From: a virus
Reading direction: 5' to 3' (one strand)
Length of the DNA: 64,000 nt
Virus record (IMG/VR): IMGVR_UViG_3300042321_002027
Both the position numbers and the translations under genes were made by a program. Of the stretch, positions 4,365-64,000 are shown in pieces (the first letter of the stretch is position 1; every line of letters starts with the position of its first letter). Under the pieces are notes generated by a model that was not told where the DNA came from, ran no database searches, and was given only the letters and a program-made list of their open reading frames with translations.

Positions 4365-6772
4365 TGAAGTTTCAAGAAGAAAAATTTATCTCTAATTTCA
4401 TCAAGAATCAGTTCCCTGCTTTTTACCAAGAAGAGGGTCCAGACTTTGTATTGTTTTTAAAAGCATATTATGAGTGGATGGAATCTTCTGAACAGCCAAT
4501 TTATCAAGCAAGAAGGTTGTTTGATTACAGAGATATTGATAATACTTTAGAAAGCTTTTTAGAGTATTTCCAAAAGAAATATTTGTACGGCATTCCTTTC
4601 AATGTTATTGCTAATAAAAGATTTCTATTGAAACACATTTTGGACGTTTACCGTTCAAAAGGAACTATACAGTGTTATAGATTACTTTTTAAACTGCTGT
4701 ATAATGAAGATATTGAAGTTTATCTTCCCGGTAAAGACGTTCTCAGGGTTTCCGACGGCACTTGGGTTGAGCCAAAGTACCTAGAAGTAACAGACAATGA
4801 AAATTTATCGAATTATGTCGGCAAAACTATTATCGGCGCGACTTCTAAAGTAACAGCCACAGTTGAAAACTTTGTTAGAGAAAACTACAACAACGACATA
4901 ATCAACATTTTATACATTTCGAATATTTTGCCAAGAAAAAAAGAATTCGAAATTAATGAAAAGATAGTTTTGCTTGATGATGAAGAAAACACAGAGGCCA
5001 TCAACCTAGCACCAACTTTGTTGGGCTCTTTAAATAGAATATCAATTGTTAGTGGTGGTCAAGATTATAATATCGGAGATGTTATTAAAATTGTTCATAG
5101 AGATTTAACTAATAACGATGTGATCTCTTATGGTGTTGATGGTATATTAACAGTAACCAAGTTATTCACAGGATTTGGTTCTTTAAGATATGATCTTGTT
5201 GATGGCGGATTTGGTTATACTGCAAACTCGCTAGTGTTCCTTTACAAAACAAGTGCTGCTGGTCGTGGCGCTTCGTTGTCTATTGATTCGTTAACGTCAC
5301 AGCAACTCGTAGAATATAACACAGATATTTTATATGATTATTTGACTCTTCCGCTAAATGCGCCCAATTATGGGTTCCCATTAAATCCTTCAGCAAATAT
5401 AGAAAATACTTTAACAACAACTTTAAGTTATAACACAGAACTTTTTGGTAGTATTTTAGGATTTGGTAACGTTTCTATCGGCAATTCTTATGAAACTGCC
5501 GTAAATGTATTCGTAAGATCGGTGATAACTTCGAATCCGTTGCCTGGAACATTAACTTACAACACAACGTCAAATACTGTTTCTGGAGTTGGTACATCAT
5601 TTGACCTCTATCAAAATAATGACGTTATTGCTTTGCAAGCAAATTCTTCAAATGCTTCAACTATGGAATATGCTGTAATTAGAACTGCAGTTTCTTCTTC
5701 AGAGTTGACTTTATATGGACCACCAACTATAAATTCAACTGCTTCTGCTCAGTATAGACTTGCTCCTACAATTTTACCTTCTGGGTTTGCAAGATATGAA
5801 GACATTATGTATACCAATGATGGTTCATTGGTTGGTGAAAACGAACTTATTCTGGCTTATCCGAACACTGGTAATAACATCGTATTAGAAGCCGAAGCTA
5901 TCAATTCTGGTAAAGGCTATGTACAAAGCGAACAAGTAAGAGCATATATACACTCTAGTGTTTCCAATGTAGTAACTATATCTAGCACAGGTTCCGGATA
6001 TGCAGAAAACGAACAGCTACTGTTCGTTGGCGGTGATCCCTCATTCATAGCCAATGGTTACGTTTCATCAGTTGATGGAAATGGCGCTATATCAGATGTA
6101 ACAATAACATATGGCGGTTCCGGTTATAAAGAAATACCAGAAATAAGAGTTTCTACAGCAAATGGTTCAGGTGCACGTTTAGAATCTTCTTTGGTAGAAT
6201 TTGACACCGTAGGTGACGTATCAGAAAAAATTATTAGAGCAAGAGTAATTAAAGGACCAATTGGTAGAGGCACAGGTTATTACTCTACTACTAGAGGATT
6301 TTTAGACTCTGATAAATATATACAAGATAGCTACTATTATCAAGATTATTCTTATGAGATAAGAGTCGCACAAACATTAAATAAATACAAAGATATAATA
6401 TACGATACATTCCACAGTTCTGGTTCGGAGTTATTTGGTAAGTATTTAAAATTCTTATATGGTACATCGACAGCCAATTTAGTTTTTGATTCTGTTACCA
6501 TTTTTCCTAGCCCATGGTCGACAGATTCAGGTAATAGTATACCGGCGCTGGTTAATACTACTGATAAAACTGCTGATATCACTGTTTTTGGTGTTTATTT
6601 TGCCAATTCAGTAAAATCAGATGCAACCATATTAAATTATTCTAGTTTTTTAAGCGCGGACAGAACAACTGTAACAGCGGATGATCGTAGAGTTATTTCT
6701 TACCTCTTAGCTTCTGAGACAAAATACAGAGCAGATGAGGGTAGAATCATAGTTAATAGATATTACGTTTAA
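4364..6772 (+). CDS. gp7: baseplate wedge initiator gp7-like
   Basis: QFPAFYQEE..FVLFLKAYYEWME, YRSKGT, IQDSYYYQDYSYEI motifs; follows gp6. Confidence 0.8.
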   Translation: MKFQEEKFISNFIKNQFPAFYQEEGPDFVLFLKAYYEWMESSEQPIYQARRLFDYRDIDNTLESFLEYFQKKYLYGIPFNVIANKRFLLKHILDVYRSKGTIQCYRLLFKLLYNEDIEVYLPGKDVLRVSDGTWVEPKYLEVTDNENLSNYVGKTIIGATSKVTATVENFVRENYNNDIINILYISNILPRKKEFEINEKIVLLDDEENTEAINLAPTLLGSLNRISIVSGGQDYNIGDVIKIVHRDLTNNDVISYGVDGILTVTKLFTGFGSLRYDLVDGGFGYTANSLVFLYKTSAAGRGASLSIDSLTSQQLVEYNTDILYDYLTLPLNAPNYGFPLNPSANIENTLTTTLSYNTELFGSILGFGNVSIGNSYETAVNVFVRSVITSNPLPGTLTYNTTSNTVSGVGTSFDLYQNNDVIALQANSSNASTMEYAVIRTAVSSSELTLYGPPTINSTASAQYRLAPTILPSGFARYEDIMYTNDGSLVGENELILAYPNTGNNIVLEAEAINSGKGYVQSEQVRAYIHSSVSNVVTISSTGSGYAENEQLLFVGGDPSFIANGYVSSVDGNGAISDVTITYGGSGYKEIPEIRVSTANGSGARLESSLVEFDTVGDVSEKIIRARVIKGPIGRGTGYYSTTRGFLDSDKYIQDSYYYQDYSYEIRVAQTLNKYKDIIYDTFHSSGSELFGKYLKFLYGTSTANLVFDSVTIFPSPWSTDSGNSIPALVNTTDKTADITVFGVYFANSVKSDATILNYSSFLSADRTTVTADDRRVISYLLASETKYRADEGRIIVNRYYV

Positions 6773-57161: not shown

Positions 57162-57710
57162 ATGGCAAAGCGAGTAGTAAATTATATCAATAACAAGACA
57201 CTTTATTCTGCAATGATTCAATATAAAAACTCAGTTGAAGAAGCAGTTAAGGAAAGCAGACAGAAACCAAAGGTTTCAGAGTACATCGGTCAATCAATTC
57301 TTTTAATTTGTAATAATCTGGCAAAGAAACCAAACTTTTCTGGATATACATATAAACAGGATATGATTTCGGATGGTATAATTGATTGTGTTGCTGCAGT
57401 TGATAATTTTAATCCTGACAAAACGAATAATCCATTCGCTTACTTTACACAGATTGCTTGGAATGCTTTTATTAGAAGAATACACAAAGAGAAAAAGCAA
57501 ACTTATATTAAGCATAAGAATTACGAGAACAGTGTTTTGTTAGAAGAACATTGGGAGCATTCTACAGGTCAATTAAAAACAAATGAATACTCAGATGAAG
57601 TGGTTAGAAACTTTGAAAATAAGTTGACTAAAACTAAAAAACCTAGTAAACTTAGTGGGATTGAAGTGTTTTCAGAAGAGTTGAATGATGAAGATAGCGT
57701 TAATAACTGA
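57162..57710 (+). CDS. gp55: late transcription sigma factor gp55
   Basis: YINNK, YIG.SI..I...LA.KPNF.GY, MISDGI..C, NPFAYFTQI. Confidence 0.95.
   Translation: MAKRVVNYINNKTLYSAMIQYKNSVEEAVKESRQKPKVSEYIGQSILLICNNLAKKPNFSGYTYKQDMISDGIIDCVAAVDNFNPDKTNNPFAYFTQIAWNAFIRRIHKEKKQTYIKHKNYENSVLLEEHWEHSTGQLKTNEYSDEVVRNFENKLTKTKKPSKLSGIEVFSEELNDEDSVNN
57624..57652 (+). promoter_or_regulatory. sigma70-like promoter TTGACT-N17-TAAACT for gp47/gp46
   Basis: Inside the 3' end of gp55; 17-bp spacer. Confidence 0.5.
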
Positions 57711-58755
57711 TACACATTGGGGTGTAAGAAACGACAATGTGGCATTCCTTGACAACAATAAAAAGTTTCTTGATGAAATCTTTTTTCCCTATATTGACAG
57801 GAACGGTATTAACACTGTTGTTCATCTTGGTGATCTTGTCGATAGGCGTAAGTACATTAACATAAACACTGCTCGTAGAATGAGGGTCGACTTTCTTGAA
57901 AAACTTAAAGAACGCAATCTCGAAGTTCATCTTATCGCTGGCAATCACGACACTCATTATAAAAATACAAATGAAGTTAACGCTATTAAGGAGCTTGTTG
58001 AAAATGCATACCCTTCTTTCAAAACTTACACCAAGCATGCCGAATCTGTCACTTTTGGTGGAGTACCTATTCTATTCATCCCTTGGATTTGCGATGATAA
58101 TCGGGAGCAAGTTCTAAATGCCATTAAAACCACCTCCAGCCAAATTGCCCTCGGTCACCTTGAGATCTGCGGCTTTGAAATGTTTAAAGGGTCTGTTGTC
58201 TCTCATGGTGATGATCGTAGCCTTTTCAATAAGTTTGATATTGTTATGTCTGGGCATTTCCATCATAGGTCCACTGATGGTCATATTGTTTATCTTGGTA
58301 GCCATGGCGAGTTTACTTGGTCTGACTTCGATGATCCACGAGGTTTTCATGTATTCGATACGGAAACTAGGGAACTAATCTTTATTGAAAATCCTTTTAA
58401 GATGTTCAAAAAGGTTTGGTATAATGATGCTGATGATGCTTTTCTTCAAAAGAAGATAGACTATAGTCAATATCGTGGTTGTATACTTAAAGTTATTGTT
58501 ACAAACAAAACAAACCACTATTGGTTCGATAAGTTTATTGAAAATTTAGAAAGCGAAAATCCTCTAGAAATACAAATAGTCGAAGATAATTTACACTTGA
58601 ATCTTGAAGATGATCAAGACATAGTTAACGAAGCTGAATCGACTCTTGATATTTTCAAGAAATATATCGAAAACTATGAAATGAAAAACATCAATAAAGA
58701 TAAGTTGACTAAAAAGATATTCGACTTATACAATGAGGCTATTAGTATAGTATGA
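57685..58755 (+). CDS. gp47: recombination nuclease gp47 (Mre11/SbcD-like)
   Basis: DTHWG, HLGDL.DRR, GNHD, GHLE, SGHFH motifs. Confidence 0.95.
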   Translation: MMKIALITDTHWGVRNDNVAFLDNNKKFLDEIFFPYIDRNGINTVVHLGDLVDRRKYININTARRMRVDFLEKLKERNLEVHLIAGNHDTHYKNTNEVNAIKELVENAYPSFKTYTKHAESVTFGGVPILFIPWICDDNREQVLNAIKTTSSQIALGHLEICGFEMFKGSVVSHGDDRSLFNKFDIVMSGHFHHRSTDGHIVYLGSHGEFTWSDFDDPRGFHVFDTETRELIFIENPFKMFKKVWYNDADDAFLQKKIDYSQYRGCILKVIVTNKTNHYWFDKFIENLESENPLEIQIVEDNLHLNLEDDQDIVNEAESTLDIFKKYIENYEMKNINKDKLTKKIFDLYNEAISIV

Positions 58756-60458
58756 TTTTATTTAAAAAGATACGTTGGAAAAACTTTTTATCTACTGGAA
58801 ATATCTTTACAGAACTTCAGCTGAATAACAGTAATACCACTTTAGTCGTTGGTGAAAATGGCGCTGGTAAATCAACTTTACTGGATGCTTTGTCATTCGT
58901 TTTGTTTAGTAAGCCGTTTAGAAAAATCAATAAGCCACAATTGGTTAATACCATCACACAGAAACAATTGATTGTTGAGGTTGAATTTTCTATTGGATCT
59001 AACGAGTATAAGATCGTCCGTGGTATGAAGCCAAACCTTTTCGAGGTTTACCAAAACGGTAAGCTTATGAATCAATCTGCAGAAATGAAAGACTATCAGG
59101 AAATACTCGAAAAGCAAATTATCAAAGTAAACCATAAATCGTTTTGTCAAGTTGTTGTATTGGGTTCTGCAACATTCCAACCCTTCATGCAGCTTACTGC
59201 GTATCAACGTAGAGAAATTATTGAAGATCTTTTAGACCTTCAGATATTTACTACAATGAACTCTCTGTTGAAAGACAAAGTTCTAATCAATTCTGAAAAC
59301 ATACAATCTGCAAGTTCTGATAAAAAATTGATAGAAGAAAAGATTGTTCTTGTTAAGGAACACTTAAAAGAAATACAAAACAATAATGTAAAATTAATTG
59401 AAGAAAAACAATCACGTATTCAAGAAACCAATAATCAGATCACAAAGTTAAATAATGAATATTGGGAGTATGAAACCAAGCGGAAAAATCTCGAAAATTC
59501 TTTAGCTGACGAGGAAACAGTTTCAAAGAAGCTTAATAAGCTGGGCCAATTGAGGCATCAAATTGAAGCAAATCTCAATATCTTGAACAAAGAAGTTGGG
59601 TTTTTCCACAAGTATGATAACTGTCCAACCTGCAAACAGCAAATTGATGAGAAGTTTAAGAACGAAACAATCAACACAAAAGAATCTGAGATTGTAAAAA
59701 TTCAAGACGGTCTTGAAATGCTCAGCAAAGAATACGAAAAGGTCAACACTCGTCTTAATGAGCTGATCGAGATACACTCTGAAATCAACCACAACAAACT
59801 TGAAATCAGCAGAGTTAAAACAAAAATATCATCACTAATTGAATATCGTGACGCTCTTGAAAAAGAAATAAAAACCATAGACAAAAAGACCGTTGAGGAA
59901 GAAAACAATAAAGTTCCAGAACTAGAAAAGAGCTTAAAGGGCATAGAAGAAAAATACTATGATCTTATGGAAGAAAGAAACATACTTTCGATCGCATCTA
60001 ACTTATTGAAAGACGGCGGCATTAAAGCTAAGATTATCAAGCAGTATATCCCCGTAATCAATAAGCTGATCAACAAATATCTCTCTTCAATGGAATTCAT
60101 GTGTCAGTTTGAACTTGATGAAGAGTTCAATGAGACTATTAAATCAAGATATAGAGACGTTTTCAGTTATGCTTCCTTCTCTGAAGGCGAAAAGATGCGT
60201 ATCAATCTTGCTATTCTTTTCACTTGGAGAGCTATTGCTAAGTTGAGAAACTCTATCAATACGAACATTCTTATCATGGACGAAGTGTTTGACAGTTCTT
60301 TAGACTCTAATGGAACAGAAGAGTTCCTCAAGATAATAAACAGCTTGACTTCAGATACAAACACGTTTATAATAAGCCATAAAACTGATCAGCTTTACGA
60401 CAAGTTTGAAAAGGTCATAAAGTTCGAGAAACATAAAAATTTTAGTAGGATAGTGTAA
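58752..60458 (+). CDS. gp46: recombination ATPase gp46 (Rad50/SbcC-like)
   Basis: GENGAGKST, CPTC zinc hook, FSEGEK, MDEVFDSSLD. Confidence 0.96.
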   Translation: MILFKKIRWKNFLSTGNIFTELQLNNSNTTLVVGENGAGKSTLLDALSFVLFSKPFRKINKPQLVNTITQKQLIVEVEFSIGSNEYKIVRGMKPNLFEVYQNGKLMNQSAEMKDYQEILEKQIIKVNHKSFCQVVVLGSATFQPFMQLTAYQRREIIEDLLDLQIFTTMNSLLKDKVLINSENIQSASSDKKLIEEKIVLVKEHLKEIQNNNVKLIEEKQSRIQETNNQITKLNNEYWEYETKRKNLENSLADEETVSKKLNKLGQLRHQIEANLNILNKEVGFFHKYDNCPTCKQQIDEKFKNETINTKESEIVKIQDGLEMLSKEYEKVNTRLNELIEIHSEINHNKLEISRVKTKISSLIEYRDALEKEIKTIDKKTVEEENNKVPELEKSLKGIEEKYYDLMEERNILSIASNLLKDGGIKAKIIKQYIPVINKLINKYLSSMEFMCQFELDEEFNETIKSRYRDVFSYASFSEGEKMRINLAILFTWRAIAKLRNSINTNILIMDEVFDSSLDSNGTEEFLKIINSLTSDTNTFIISHKTDQLYDKFEKVIKFEKHKNFSRIV

Positions 60459-60964
60459 TGCAGTTAGTAAATCATAATGACCCAATATTAACCACTCCTT
60501 GTAAAACATTTAATTTTTTAAGTGCTCCATTTGATCCTGTGCAGTTTGCTAAAGATCTTGTCAAGTTCATGCATGATAGTAATGGAATCGGTATTGCAGC
60601 TAACCAAGTTGGTATCCCATATAGAATTTTTGCTATGAGAGGAGCTCCTGAAAACTTCGTTTGTATTAACCCAAAGATTGTATGGAAATCAGAAGCTAAT
60701 GTAGAGCTTGAAGAAGGATGCTTGACTTATAATGGGTTATTAGTTAAGATTACTAGACCGCAGCATATTCGTGTTAGATTCAGCACGCCTAATGGCGATG
60801 TGTTAACGAAACAGTTTACGGGAATGACTGCTAGAATATTTCAACATGAACTAGATCATTTGGATGGAATCCTTTTCTACAACAGAGCAAACCGCTATCA
60901 CCGCGACCAAGCATTGAAGAAATGGAAACGTGGCGATAAATTTGAAATGAAAGTATCTGCATGA
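60458..60964 (+). CDS. def: peptide deformylase
   Basis: GIGIAANQVG, EGCL, QHELDHLDG motifs. Confidence 0.93.
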   Translation: MQLVNHNDPILTTPCKTFNFLSAPFDPVQFAKDLVKFMHDSNGIGIAANQVGIPYRIFAMRGAPENFVCINPKIVWKSEANVELEEGCLTYNGLLVKITRPQHIRVRFSTPNGDVLTKQFTGMTARIFQHELDHLDGILFYNRANRYHRDQALKKWKRGDKFEMKVSA

Positions 60965-61500
60965 ACATTTTCTACATTGATAAAGATCCAGTACAAGCTG
61001 CTCAGTGGATGGTTGACAAGCATGTTGTCAAAATGATCCTTGAGTCTGCGCAACTTCTTTGTACTGCGCATCGTTTGCTCGATGGTGTTGAAAATCTTGG
61101 TAAATCTGCGACTGGCCGTAATGTAAAGCGTTGGACTCTCGCAGATGCTCGCGAGCCAGTTTTGTATTCAGCAACTCACATCAATCATCCCTCTGCTGTT
61201 TGGTGTCGCAAGTCTGTTGAAAACTATAACTGGCTCGCGGATCATATGTTTGCGTTATTAAACGAGTACACTCATCGTTATAATAAGAACCATAAAGTAG
61301 AAGGCGATCTTAGCTATATGCTTCAGTCTCCGCCACATAATCTTAAAGAATATGATATGACTCTAATGCCTTCGGCCATGGCTGACGAATATAAAATTTC
61401 AAATGACCCCTTGACTAATTATCGGAATTATTATAAGATTGGCAAGGCTAAAATGCACAAGTGGACCAACAGGCAACCTCCGGAGTGGATTAATGATTGA
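60961..61500 (+). CDS. pyrimidine-dimer DNA glycosylase (DenV-like family)
   Basis: MNIFY.D.DP..AA....DKHVVKMILESAQLLCTAH, H.NHPSAVW, YR.YY motifs. Confidence 0.7.
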   Translation: MNIFYIDKDPVQAAQWMVDKHVVKMILESAQLLCTAHRLLDGVENLGKSATGRNVKRWTLADAREPVLYSATHINHPSAVWCRKSVENYNWLADHMFALLNEYTHRYNKNHKVEGDLSYMLQSPPHNLKEYDMTLMPSAMADEYKISNDPLTNYRNYYKIGKAKMHKWTNRQPPEWIND

Positions 61501-61756
61501 CGACCAAAACAACCCTCATACTCTTCACCAGTCAGGATACATGGTTTCTTTCTTCAAGAAGAATACAGCGTGCGGCGTGAACGATGACTGGGATAGTTGC
61601 AATCTTTCCTGTTGGTCTTCAGGTGGTGCACTTGATGTTACTATAAAAGATAAGCATTTATATTATGGTATTGTTGGATTGCTTGAGTGTGTTTATCACT
61701 CTGGTGAGTTTAACGCAAAGAAAGAAATTCGTAAAATTTTAGGAGTAAGAGATTAA
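61493..61756 (+). CDS. hypothetical protein
   Basis: ATG at 61493 with GGAG SD, preferred over 61439. Confidence 0.55.
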   Translation: MIDDQNNPHTLHQSGYMVSFFKKNTACGVNDDWDSCNLSCWSSGGALDVTIKDKHLYYGIVGLLECVYHSGEFNAKKEIRKILGVRD

Positions 61757-61757
61757 T

Positions 61758-62138
61758 ATGGCAACTATGTTTGAAAAAGTTCGTGATTTCCATGCAGCGT
61801 TTGGGCAGCGTGTTGGCGAGAAGCCAGAGCTTCCTTCTTATGAAGAACGCGAACTTCGCATGAGATTAATGAAGGAAGAGTTCAACGAGTATAACAAGGC
61901 AGAAGATAATAGCGATATTACTAATCTTGCTGTTGAGCTTGCCGATATTATCTACATCGCTTGCGGTACTGCTGTTTCTTACGGCATTCCTCTTGATGAA
62001 GTATTCAATGCGATTCATTCAGCGAACATGAACAAGCTCGTTGATGGTAAGGTCATCCGTCGCGAAGATGGAAAAATTAAGAAGCCCGAAGGTTGGCAAC
62101 CTGCTGACATAGAAGGTATTCTTAAAAAGTATAGCTAA
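61758..62138 (+). CDS. MazG-like (all-alpha) NTP pyrophosphohydrolase
   Basis: V.DFH.AF, LM.EE..E, ELADIIY, IH.ANM.K, REDGKI.KP. Confidence 0.85.
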   Translation: MATMFEKVRDFHAAFGQRVGEKPELPSYEERELRMRLMKEEFNEYNKAEDNSDITNLAVELADIIYIACGTAVSYGIPLDEVFNAIHSANMNKLVDGKVIRREDGKIKKPEGWQPADIEGILKKYS

Positions 62139-62141
62139 TGC

Positions 62142-62170
62142 TTGACATTAATTCAATTTTGAATTATGAT
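62142..62170 (+). promoter_or_regulatory. sigma70-type promoter TTGACA-N17-TATGAT
   Basis: Near-consensus, intergenic, upstream of the TET/JBP-like gene. Confidence 0.8.
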
Positions 62171-62185
62171 TCGTATATATACGAA
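62170..62185. promoter_or_regulatory. 16-bp perfect palindrome over the predicted transcription start (operator-like)
   Basis: TTCGTATATATACGAA. Confidence 0.5.
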
Positions 62186-62216
62186 GTATCGTACATATAC
62201 AAACATGGAGAAGTAA

Positions 62217-63521
62217 ATGGTTGAGGTTCTTGTAAGAAAGAAGATTAGTTCAGAAGAAACTCTTGGTTCTTTTATTACTTGTAAAGATTATACGGATAGG
62301 ATCATAACTGAAGATTGTGATCTTTATGCTGAATCTATTGATGGTAAACTTTCTGAAGAGAATATCATTTTTAAGTTCAGGAAGAACGTATTTACCAAAG
62401 AAGAAATGGACATGGCGTATGCTGGTCTTAGAGATGCTGCAACTGAGTCGCAAAATCGTGGCATGGCGGCTGGTCCACGTGGCGATCAGTTAGGTCAGGA
62501 AGGTCGTGGCAACCGCGATTGGGTGACTGCTGAACACCTTGAGATTCTTTCTTTCTTGGCAAGACCTACTAATACATTTGATGATGGCACAACTATCGAA
62601 TCAATTCGTGAAAGCCATAAGAAGGGCTCAAAAGAAGAAACTCGTGGTCAGGTTTGGTTACGTTCTGCAGTTACAAAAAAGTATCCTGAGTACCACGGTT
62701 GGTTTGAAAAGTGGCTTACTGGCACTCATAATCTTTCTCGTGAAGAACAAATCAAAGAAGCTAATTACGTAATCAATAATTATATTTCTGATACTAATTA
62801 TGCTCAATCTGTAATGTCTGGCATTGCTGGATATTTTGACAGATATCCCCGCATCCCTCATGGTCGTGTTTGTTCTTATAATGAAAAAAATCCAGAAAAG
62901 TTTAAGCTTGCTTTCCCTTATCTTCGTAAGTTAAATGACCAGTTTAGAGAACTTTTACCTATTCGCTGGGGCAATCAGCGCCGCGAAGCTGACAAGCTTG
63001 ACACGAGATTCCTTGTTGATGAGACAGTTTTCACAACACTGACAGTTAATCATAACTGGCGTACAGCTTGTCACCGAGACGCTGGTGATTTGCATGAAGG
63101 GTTTTCTAACATCTGTGGCATCACTGGTCCTGAAGGTAAGGGTTGGAAAGGTGCTGAGTTTATTCTCCCTGAATATCGTATAGGTATCAATCTTCTACCT
63201 GGAGATATGTTGCTCGTTAACAACCATGGTGGTATTCATGGTAATGACGCTCTTATTGGTGACGATAATGATCGGTTGACACTTGTTTGTTATTTCCGTG
63301 AAAAGATGGTTGAATTGAAATCTTGGGATTACGAGATGCTTCGTAAACAGTTTGTTGAGGAGCGCCGCCTTAATAAGGATCACAAGTTACAAAGACCATT
63401 ATGGAATGGTGTTTCTCCCGGAATGTGGGATGATCAAGAGTGGTTTGATTATATGAAGAAGCACAACATTACAGATCCATACGCAAAGGAAGCAGCAGCG
63501 AGCTTGGATGCATTCTTTTAA
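62217..63521 (+). CDS. TET/JBP-family 2OG-Fe(II) dioxygenase
   Basis: SGIAGYFDR, VFTTLTVN.N.RTACHRDAGD (HxD), GDMLL...H..IHGN, R.TLVCYFRE motifs. Confidence 0.78.
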   Translation: MVEVLVRKKISSEETLGSFITCKDYTDRIITEDCDLYAESIDGKLSEENIIFKFRKNVFTKEEMDMAYAGLRDAATESQNRGMAAGPRGDQLGQEGRGNRDWVTAEHLEILSFLARPTNTFDDGTTIESIRESHKKGSKEETRGQVWLRSAVTKKYPEYHGWFEKWLTGTHNLSREEQIKEANYVINNYISDTNYAQSVMSGIAGYFDRYPRIPHGRVCSYNEKNPEKFKLAFPYLRKLNDQFRELLPIRWGNQRREADKLDTRFLVDETVFTTLTVNHNWRTACHRDAGDLHEGFSNICGITGPEGKGWKGAEFILPEYRIGINLLPGDMLLVNNHGGIHGNDALIGDDNDRLTLVCYFREKMVELKSWDYEMLRKQFVEERRLNKDHKLQRPLWNGVSPGMWDDQEWFDYMKKHNITDPYAKEAAASLDAFF

Positions 63522-64000
63522 TGTGTGGAGTCCTTGGCATAACAATTGCTGATTTTAACGAGAGAGACTACGGAATTATCCGTAGTCTTTTTCAACAGTC
63601 AATGATTCGTGGCAAGCATGCTACTGGTGTTTCTTATGTAAAGAATGGTAAAGTTCACACAATTAAAGAACCAATTCCGGCTGATAAGTTTATACAAAAA
63701 CAAAACTTAGAAACTTGGAGAAACGAAGATGGTAATCTCTATTGTATTGGTCACATTCGCTATAGCACTTCTGACCTACGTTACAATCAGCCTTTTGCAA
63801 CTGATGAGTTGGGCGTTGTGCATAACGGAGTCATATCCCAAGAACCTCCTAGCACATGGCGTCAGCTATTTGGCTATGAAACAGAAACAGCAAACGACTC
63901 CGAGCTTGTTCTGCGAGCAATGGAAAAAGACGAAAATCCACTAGCTGTGTTTCACCCAGCTAGTATGGCGGTCTGTGCGCTGTTTGCCGATAAAAGATTA
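63521..64000 (+). CDS. class II (Ntn) glutamine amidotransferase, truncated by the window end; absent from the ORF track
   Basis: Hand translation: MCGVLG...RGKHATG...GHIRYSTS...NQP...VVHNGVI...NDSE, open to nt 64000; TAATG coupling to the TET/JBP gene. Confidence 0.88.
   Translation, partial: MCGVLGITIADFNERDYGIIRSLFQQSMIRGKHATGVSYVKNGKVHTIKEPIPADKFIQKQNLETWRNEDGNLYCIGHIRYSTSDLRYNQPFATDELGVVHNGVISQEPPSTWRQLFGYETETANDSELVLRAMEKDENPLAVFHPASMAVCALFADKRL

Follow-up and report, generated by a model that had tools for sequence, protein, structure and literature searches.

What does a T4-like phage do with a gene pair in which a dioxygenase of the TET/JBP family is coupled to a glutamine amidotransferase (GATase)? 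The question is raised by the 3′ end of a 64,000-nucleotide stretch of IMG/VR virus record IMGVR_UViG_3300042321_002027 (the whole stretch is called the window in the following), which comes from an uncultured T4-like phage of freshwater (a lake), and for which an earlier note, made from the sequence alone, had proposed a DNA hypermodification locus. All sequence features named in that note were recovered at their positions, and its view of a TET/JBP-primed locus that continues beyond the window stands, while two parts of it do not: the direct amination of an oxidized base by the GATase, and the role of MazG-like and glycosylase genes as specific partners. With a probability of about 0.75, we read the locus as a post-replicative thymidine hypermodification operon that is primed by the TET/JBP enzyme. 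Of this operon, the window reaches only the first two genes, and the locus continues past its end; close relatives carry genes for an amidoligase, a GNAT protein, an amino acid:DNA transferase (AADT), and a P-loop kinase of the 5-hmdU DNA kinase type directly downstream.

The priming enzyme is encoded at 62217–63521 (plus strand), and its 434-aa product can be assigned to the TET/JBP family of 5-methylpyrimidine dioxygenases (5mYOXs) by Pfam match, fold, and catalytic residues. Residues 204–362 match Pfam Tet_JBP (PF12851) with an E-value of 1.2e-14 and 54.4 bits (cut-off 34.9). An AlphaFold2 model generated from 76 homologs (pLDDT 93.2, pTM 0.89) retrieved human TET2, Coprinopsis CcTet, Naegleria NgTET1, and Chlamydomonas CMD1 at the top Foldseek ranks, with E-values down to 2.4e-10. 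In VIA-align comparisons, the Z-scores were 20.7 for TET2 (265 aa, root-mean-square deviation 3.8), 19.4 for CMD1, and 18.7 for NgTET1, and at most 14.4 for AlkB, ALKBH3, and FTO; as modeled, the double-stranded beta-helix fold is nearer to the TET enzymes than to other 2-oxoglutarate (2OG) oxygenases. The oxygenase thus groups with TET/JBP by profile as well as by fold, as had been assumed. A sequence search of the PDB with the dioxygenase gave no matches. The Fe/2OG-binding residues HxD...H...R are intact (H286, D288, H341, and R353, encoded at 63072, 63078, 63237, and 63273), with H286, D288, and H341 being invariant and R353 at least 90% conserved among the 76 homologs.

The long extension that had been noted in this protein is real and consists of two parts, an insertion at residues ~91–180 and a C-terminal extension at residues ~385–434. 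A whole-library HMMER search found 1115 relatives of the dioxygenase, which are mostly ~300 aa long. In the alignment, the insertion has an occupancy of at most 0.3 in the 44 short (~300-aa) homologs and a high occupancy in homologs of at least 400 aa, and the model places helices at residues 105–189, which together define a helical insertion domain encoded at 62487–62756 (plus strand). The "variable insertion" (vi domain) described for phage 5mYOXs has the same position (O'Toole et al., PMC13229309). Likewise, the C-terminal extension is absent in the short homologs and common to those of at least 400 aa. Natural fusions exist in the family, with a kinase in one case (P0091) and with a TET-associated glycosyltransferase (TAGT) in three others (P0060, P0067, and P0101). 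Homologs of ~1100 aa had been considered as JBP2-like TET+SNF2 proteins, which had to be rejected, as these are TET+TAGT fusions without an SNF2 domain. Dioxygenase orthologs in the cultured phages DLP6 (L001, 6974–8320), Cr30 (L003, 7001–8329), S-CBWM1, and HTVC112P are labeled "SNF2 DNA repair protein", and no SNF2 domain was found in the orthologs so labeled; our guess is that the label may have been carried over from trypanosome JBP2.

The TAA stop codon of the dioxygenase gene overlaps the ATG of the next gene as TAATG (63519–63523), so both the described coupling and the Ntn amidotransferase with its MCG start are present. This second gene (63521–64000, plus strand) encodes a stand-alone class-II (Ntn) GATase that starts with MCGVLG and matches GATase_6 (PF13522; E-value 8.5e-8, 32.7 bits, cut-off 27); it is cut by the window end after the first 160 of ~233 residues. 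A megablast search of window positions 60400–64000 against 50,697 phage records gave no match, and the locus was compared with 47 related loci that came from a scan of IMG/VR with the dioxygenase as query. One of these, L004, has DNA ~90% identical to window positions 57688–64000 and an identical dioxygenase protein, and its full-length 233-aa GATase is 98% identical to the fragment in the window. No variation was seen among 11 orthologs at C2, R30, R80, N102, G103, and D126, of which Cys2 is predicted to act as the nucleophile, and this conservation makes it likely that the GATase is an active glutaminase. NCBIfam matches of the GATase are distant only, with remote similarity to the N-terminal domains of purF and asnB.

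What follows the GATase gene was read from the relatives, and inspection of the downstream genes, which the earlier note had recommended, turned up a GNAT, an AADT, a kinase, and an amidoligase. In L004, the order 3′ of the dioxygenase is GATase (233 aa), amidoligase-like protein (307 aa), GNAT (PF00583), AADT (PF18724, E-value 2.8e-23), and the start of a kinase gene. This start is also visible in L005, and the complete kinase in L006 matches Ploopntkinase3 (PF18751, E-value 2.8e-12), which we take to be the family of 5-hmdU DNA kinases. The amidoligase-like protein of L004 has relatives at 55–58% identity in which Amidoligase_2 (PF12224) is present, and its structural model (pLDDT 93.1) best matches the YbdK/GCS2 carboxylate–amine ligases (Z 10.6–10.8), with all 50 top rows being GS, GCL, GmaS, or glutathione-synthetase-type ligases. 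Sequence searches of the PDB with the AADT and with the amidoligase profile had no matches. As far as genes can tell, the GATase is a stand-alone domain, and the gene of the GS-like amidoligase lies directly 3′ of it in all 19 loci with enough sequence. Among the GATase cassettes in loci that are long enough, 14 of 14 continue with an AADT and then the kinase. The AADT is ~32% identical to that of Dickeya Limestone-type (ViI-like) phages.

Several genes that could have been expected were searched for and not found. A ParB-like gene is absent from the window and from its closest loci, L004–L006, and no homologs of ParB-like proteins, the kinase, or the AADT were found in the 64-kb window outside the locus. 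Neither a C5-methyltransferase nor a ThyA-type hydroxymethylase was found in five related records, one of which is 85% complete, and a scan of the window for PCQ-type methyltransferase motifs had no hits. As no ThyA-type hydroxymethylase or C5-methyltransferase and no PCQ motif was found, and as natural fusions with the kinase and with TAGT exist, a thymine-derived 5-hydroxymethyluracil (5hmU) is indicated.

We propose the following scheme. The TET/JBP dioxygenase would hydroxylate thymine in the phage DNA to 5hmU, as judged from its family, fold, and catalytic residues, and from the missing C5-methyltransferase. A P-loop kinase of the 5-HMUDK type would then phosphorylate the hydroxymethyl group, and the AADT would exchange the phosphate for an amino acid or amine. 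These two steps are inferred from the characterized pathways of M6, PaMx11, and ViI, in which 5hmU in DNA is phosphorylated by 5-HMUDK, the AADT replaces the phosphate, and further enzymes sculpt the adduct (PMC8989533). In the fourth step, the GATase and the GS-like amidoligase could act as a split glutamine-dependent amidating enzyme, in which the ligase activates a carboxylate that is attacked by ammonia from the Ntn domain; this carboxylate may reside on the appended group or on the donor before its transfer, resulting in a carboxamide or a new amide. Finally, the GNAT may acylate a free amine. The scheme is least certain in its fourth and fifth steps. That the GATase would directly aminate the oxidized base, as had been suggested, is disfavored: the amine most likely enters via the kinase and AADT, as in the route of Lee et al., and the ammonia more plausibly goes to the amidoligase.

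How could such enzymes find their substrate in newly made DNA? The dioxygenase ends with ...ASLDAFF, and its terminal SLDAFF (63501–63518, plus strand) is a predicted docking peptide for the sliding clamp gp45, as judged from the motif and from its match to gp43. All dioxygenase orthologs, AADTs, TAGTs, and methyltransferase-like proteins of the related loci end with [ST]L[DE]xFF plus 0–2 residues, examples being ...GLEEFM and ...NLEEFFK for the AADT, ...TLEDFFN for the TAGT, and ...TLDNFF for the methyltransferase-like protein. The gp43 DNA polymerases of two related phages have the same kind of end (...STLENFFS and ...ATLEDFFQ). Such an end occurs in only one of the 159 open reading frames (ORFs) of the window, the dioxygenase, and in two of the 420 ORFs of a 141-kb relative, which are the dioxygenase and gp43. 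None of the other gene families of the loci, including the GATase, the amidoligase, the kinase, and 502 unlabeled ORFs, has this tail. Among distant homologs of the dioxygenase, it is strictly present in 9 of 26 long forms, with several looser matches, and in none of the 44 short forms. The tail region has a pLDDT of only ~50–60 in the model and is probably flexible. In T4, the ligands of gp45 are the acidic–hydrophobic C-termini of gp43, gp55, and gp33, which are interchangeable (PMC2988020). Because the dioxygenase and the AADT share the acidic–hydrophobic end of the phage DNA polymerase, they are, by analogy, probably carried on the gp45 clamp, so that the modification would follow the replication fork. 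For the tailed modifiers, the sequences suggest that clamp docking is a well-motivated idea, and no mention of a replication-clamp motif was found in the searchable literature on phage 5mYOXs.

Other C-termini of the lineage deserve mention. The late sigma factor gp55 (57162–57710) ends with ...LSGIEVFSEELNDEDSVNN and lacks the strict terminal [ST]L[DE]xFF motif, and gp55 of this lineage may bind the clamp differently, or via an internal GIEVF. In nearly all orthologs, the stand-alone GATase terminates with a conserved ...EDLQ (L004:9491–10192 and its orthologs); this end is different from the clamp-type tail and may be a peptide that docks to the amidoligase. In the 141-kb relative, gp43 is split into a 424-aa N-terminal part, a 219-aa intervening ORF, and a 465-aa C-terminal part (L052/L053, G001:C1:137151–140393), which looks like an interruption of the homing-endonuclease type.

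A more far-reaching version of the scheme holds that hypermodification is physically coupled to replication, with the dioxygenase and the later transferases bound to gp45 via their tails, and that the GATase, amidoligase, and GNAT lead to a chemically undescribed amidated or acylated aminoacyl-thymidine. We put this forward tentatively, and rate its chance as somewhat below even. Several points weigh against the scheme, in its general or in this extended form. Of the operon, the window covers no more than the gene of the dioxygenase and the part of the GATase gene for 160 residues, and the other genes were read from relatives. The phage is uncultured, and the enzymatic steps are predicted here from genes and models. 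With 16.1 bits, the L004 amidoligase-like protein stays below the cut-off of 22 for Amidoligase_2, and its model has weak Foldseek E-values (1.7e-3). In published assays, some of the clade C1 5mYOXs that lack ParB were inactive (PMC13229309), and it is the closest relatives of the window that lack the ParB-like gene present in 11 other GATase-type cassettes. As to the clamp, the kinase, which must act on DNA, has no clamp tail, so the tail is not a simple marker of DNA-acting enzymes, and a 2025 preprint, working with enzymes tagged at the C-terminus, did not reproduce the reported interaction of the T4 alpha-glucosyltransferase (alpha-GT) with gp45.

The distribution of the tails also bears on a different order of events, in which the GATase, amidoligase, and GNAT would make a small molecule (for example, the amide of an amino acid, a gamma-glutamyl amine, or an N-acylated amino acid) as the donor that the AADT then moves onto phosphorylated 5hmU. 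The GATase, the amidoligase, and most GNATs indeed lack the clamp tail that is present on the dioxygenase, the AADT, the TAGT, and the methyltransferase-like enzyme, and ligases of the GS/GCS2 type, to which the fold matches point, normally use small molecules. However, the kinase is tailless as well despite being DNA-acting, and the characterized tailoring in PaMx11, M6, and ViI takes place on the DNA polymer (PMC8989533). We regard donor synthesis as possible and rather unlikely.

Two further explanations involve other substrates. The dioxygenase might oxidize 5-methylcytosine, as do the phage TETs of clades A and B, and the cassette would then decorate cytosine; the TET/JBP fold is shared, and the published phage T-dioxygenases oxidize 5-methylcytosine in vitro too. 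Yet there is no C5-methyltransferase in the window, by motif scan, or in the five related records, and the partners, an AADT and a 5-HMUDK-type kinase, are known from thymidine pathways alone, which leaves very little probability for a cytosine substrate. Alternatively, the GATase–amidoligase pair could be a system for the modification of phage peptides, proteins, or the cell wall, as proposed for LUZ24-like phages, and could have come to lie beside DNA-modification genes by chance. Stand-alone class-II GATases do occur in many podophages, where they are annotated as GlmS-like, but in the lineage described here the GATase and amidoligase are found only in cassettes with AADT and kinase (14 of 14), and the two are translationally coupled within the operon, which renders a chance neighborhood highly improbable. 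Thymidine hypermodification remains our preferred reading.

This reading gains a wider context from the variability of the genes behind the dioxygenase. Across the loci, the interval between the dioxygenase gene and a DUF3310 gene contains at least six types of cassettes. The first, found in the closest relatives of the window, is GATase–amidoligase–GNAT–AADT–kinase, and the second comprises the same set plus a weakly ParB-like gene (ParB_N E-value 0.036; Noc E-value 0.015) whose product has 425–501 aa, and which occurs in 11 other GATase-type loci. The third consists of a methyltransferase-like gene, a divergent AADT, and a kinase, the fourth of one or two TAGTs (PF20691), the fifth of a 326-aa and a 159-aa unknown protein, and the sixth of an AADT-like gene, an inositol-phosphate-synthase-like gene, and a kinase. 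On a maximum-likelihood tree of the dioxygenase, the cassette type switches at least 12 times among 37 rows; of 200 label shuffles, the first 10 had 14–17 changes. Different cassettes follow dioxygenases that are sisters with SH-aLRT support of 98–100. Judged by these comparisons, the position behind the dioxygenase is a hot-spot of cassette swapping, in agreement with the "modular gene pool" that Lee et al. proposed (PMC8989533).

Some details of these cassettes are worth recording. Some of the ParB-like proteins of the second type have a GIY-YIG-like N-terminus (PF01541, E-value 0.003; for example L020:13103–14548), and their alignment consensus includes a DGNTTTYA box that resembles a degenerate ParB nucleotide-binding motif. 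In the Caulobacter phage Cr30 (L003, 10027–13474) and in L029:3938–6448, the dioxygenase is accompanied by an AADT-like protein, a TAGT-like protein, and a homolog of myo-inositol-1-phosphate synthase; from this gene set, a cultured phage may have a DNA adduct derived from inositol.

How the operon is expressed can be judged from the region upstream of the dioxygenase gene. The dioxygenase has a near-consensus sigma70 promoter of its own, as had been described: TTGACA and TATGAT are separated by 17 nucleotides (62142–62170, plus strand), with 11 of 12 positions matching. In most related loci, a −35/−10 pair is kept at this position although the sequence has drifted, and such a sigma70-type promoter makes expression by the host RNA polymerase likely. 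A palindromic element, TTCGTATATATACGAA, lies directly 3′ of the −10 box, with a second GTACATATAC copy 18 nucleotides further on (62170–62200, plus strand). The combined pattern of promoter and palindrome occurs nowhere else in the window, against an expectation of 0.02 matches. Many related loci have GTATATATAC-like cores, or (C)GTATATATAC(G)-like ones, 3′ of the −10 box, and two are present in the promoter region of the window. The palindrome could be an operator or a hairpin in the 5′-leader that controls the timing of the cassette. A GTATATATAC-like site at 5942 lies within a coding region and was set aside as probably due to chance.

On the 5′ side, the locus is preceded in the window by genes for a uvsW-like helicase, gp55, gp47, gp46, and a peptide deformylase. 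Then follow the genes of a 179-aa Pyr_excise-like (T4 endoV-like) protein (60961–61500, plus strand; PF03013 with 23.7 bits at a cut-off of 23, phrog_624 E-value 5.5e-54), which probably, as far as its sequence indicates, serves in UV or base repair, and of a 126-aa nucleotide pyrophosphohydrolase of the MazG/PRA-PH type (61758–62138, plus strand; PF01503 E-value 2.2e-18, phrog_671 E-value 5.7e-38). The MazG-like and glycosylase genes are thus present as claimed, but they flank the dioxygenase with every cassette type, or with none, and are not specific partners. The Pyr_excise-like gene is found in nearly all related loci with any cassette type, MazG is next to the dioxygenase whichever cassette type is present, and MazG, the deformylase, and a 287-aa protein are near the dioxygenase also in DLP6 and Cr30. 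Whatever the cassette, the conserved order is gp47–gp46–deformylase–Pyr_excise–MazG–dioxygenase–[cassette]–DUF3310–287-aa protein–gp45–gp44. Because the MazG, deformylase, and glycosylase-like genes flank the dioxygenase with every cassette type or none, we interpret them as part of the synteny of a T4-like replication module and not as specific pathway partners.

The same considerations removed other candidates. The conserved gene 5′ of gp45 that codes for the glycosyltransferase-like 287-aa protein (283–288 aa) is not specific for the dioxygenase, as it occurs also in phiM12, phiN3, and Ochrobactrum phages without a dioxygenase match, and the DUF3310 gene was rejected as a cassette-specific gene, being a constant flank. 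A link of the deformylase to the exposure of the GATase Cys1 is not claimed, as the deformylase gene accompanies every cassette type. A 105-aa ORF between the glycosylase-like gene and MazG (61439–61756) is of uncertain status; it has no family match and was found only in the closest relatives L004 and L046, with other loci having a ~200-bp gap at this position.

The type of gene cluster is not new. Lee et al. (2021; PMC8989533, Fig. 2, sequences 22–25) showed TET_JBP contigs with AADT/5-HMUDK, amidoligase, and glutaminotransferase genes, and O'Toole et al. (2026; PMC13229309) linked the phage T-dioxygenases of clade C1 to GATases, P-loop kinases, and AADTs, so that clusters of this kind had already been predicted from metaviromes. 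As in those clusters, a dioxygenase takes the place of the dUMP hydroxymethylase and is combined with a kinase of the 5-HMUDK type, an AADT, a GATase, an amidoligase, and a GNAT, with no C5-methyltransferase. The locus described here differs in that it belongs to the replication module of a T4-like myophage, in that its closest relatives have no ParB-like partner although the dioxygenase has a C-terminal extension, in that the dioxygenase is ~130 aa longer than its ~300-aa homologs, and in having the cassette hot-spot and the polymerase-like C-terminal tails, the latter being absent from the accounts in those papers.

Comparisons with characterized systems give a similar picture of shared logic and differing parts. 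With phages PaMx11 and M6 of Pseudomonas and the Salmonella phage ViI, the locus shares the succession of kinase and AADT, the use of GNAT tailors (in PaMx11), and an AADT homologous to that of ViI-like phages. In those phages, however, 5hmU is made before replication by a dUMP hydroxymethylase, and the tailoring is done by PLP, radical-SAM, or FAD enzymes and not by a GATase and a GS-like ligase. In trypanosomes, where JBP1/2 initiate base J formation, and in phages with TAGTs (PF20691), thymine is likewise hydroxylated by a TET/JBP enzyme before its decoration; in our lineage, sister loci have TAGT genes in place of the GATase cassette, whereas the cassette type of the window has no glycosyltransferase at this position of the pathway, with amino-acid transfer predicted instead. 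Finally, the tails resemble the gp45-binding epitopes of gp43, gp55, and gp33 in T4/RB69 (PMC2988020) in being short, acidic–hydrophobic, at the extreme C-terminus behind a flexible linker, and common with the phage's own polymerase. Here, however, the peptide is a predicted ligand and belongs to DNA base-modifying enzymes, for which the sole T4 precedent, the alpha-GT/gp45 interaction, is disputed.

In summary, amidoligases and amidotransferases have been listed among the thymidine-hypermodification genes whose activities are still to be discovered (Lee et al., 2021; PMC8989533), and the lineage described here offers a compact and well-conserved operon in which the GATase/amidoligase step can be worked out. 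Its six or more cassettes behind one conserved dioxygenase represent a natural experiment in the diversification of DNA chemistry against restriction-type defenses. The polymerase-like tails provide a testable mechanism by which post-replicative modifiers find new phage DNA, and they bear on the disputed interaction between T4 glucosyltransferase and gp45 as well as on why a clamp-like ParB partner is needed by some phage T-dioxygenases. If true, the coupling to gp45 would correspond in function to the ParB clamp by which other phage T-dioxygenases are activated.

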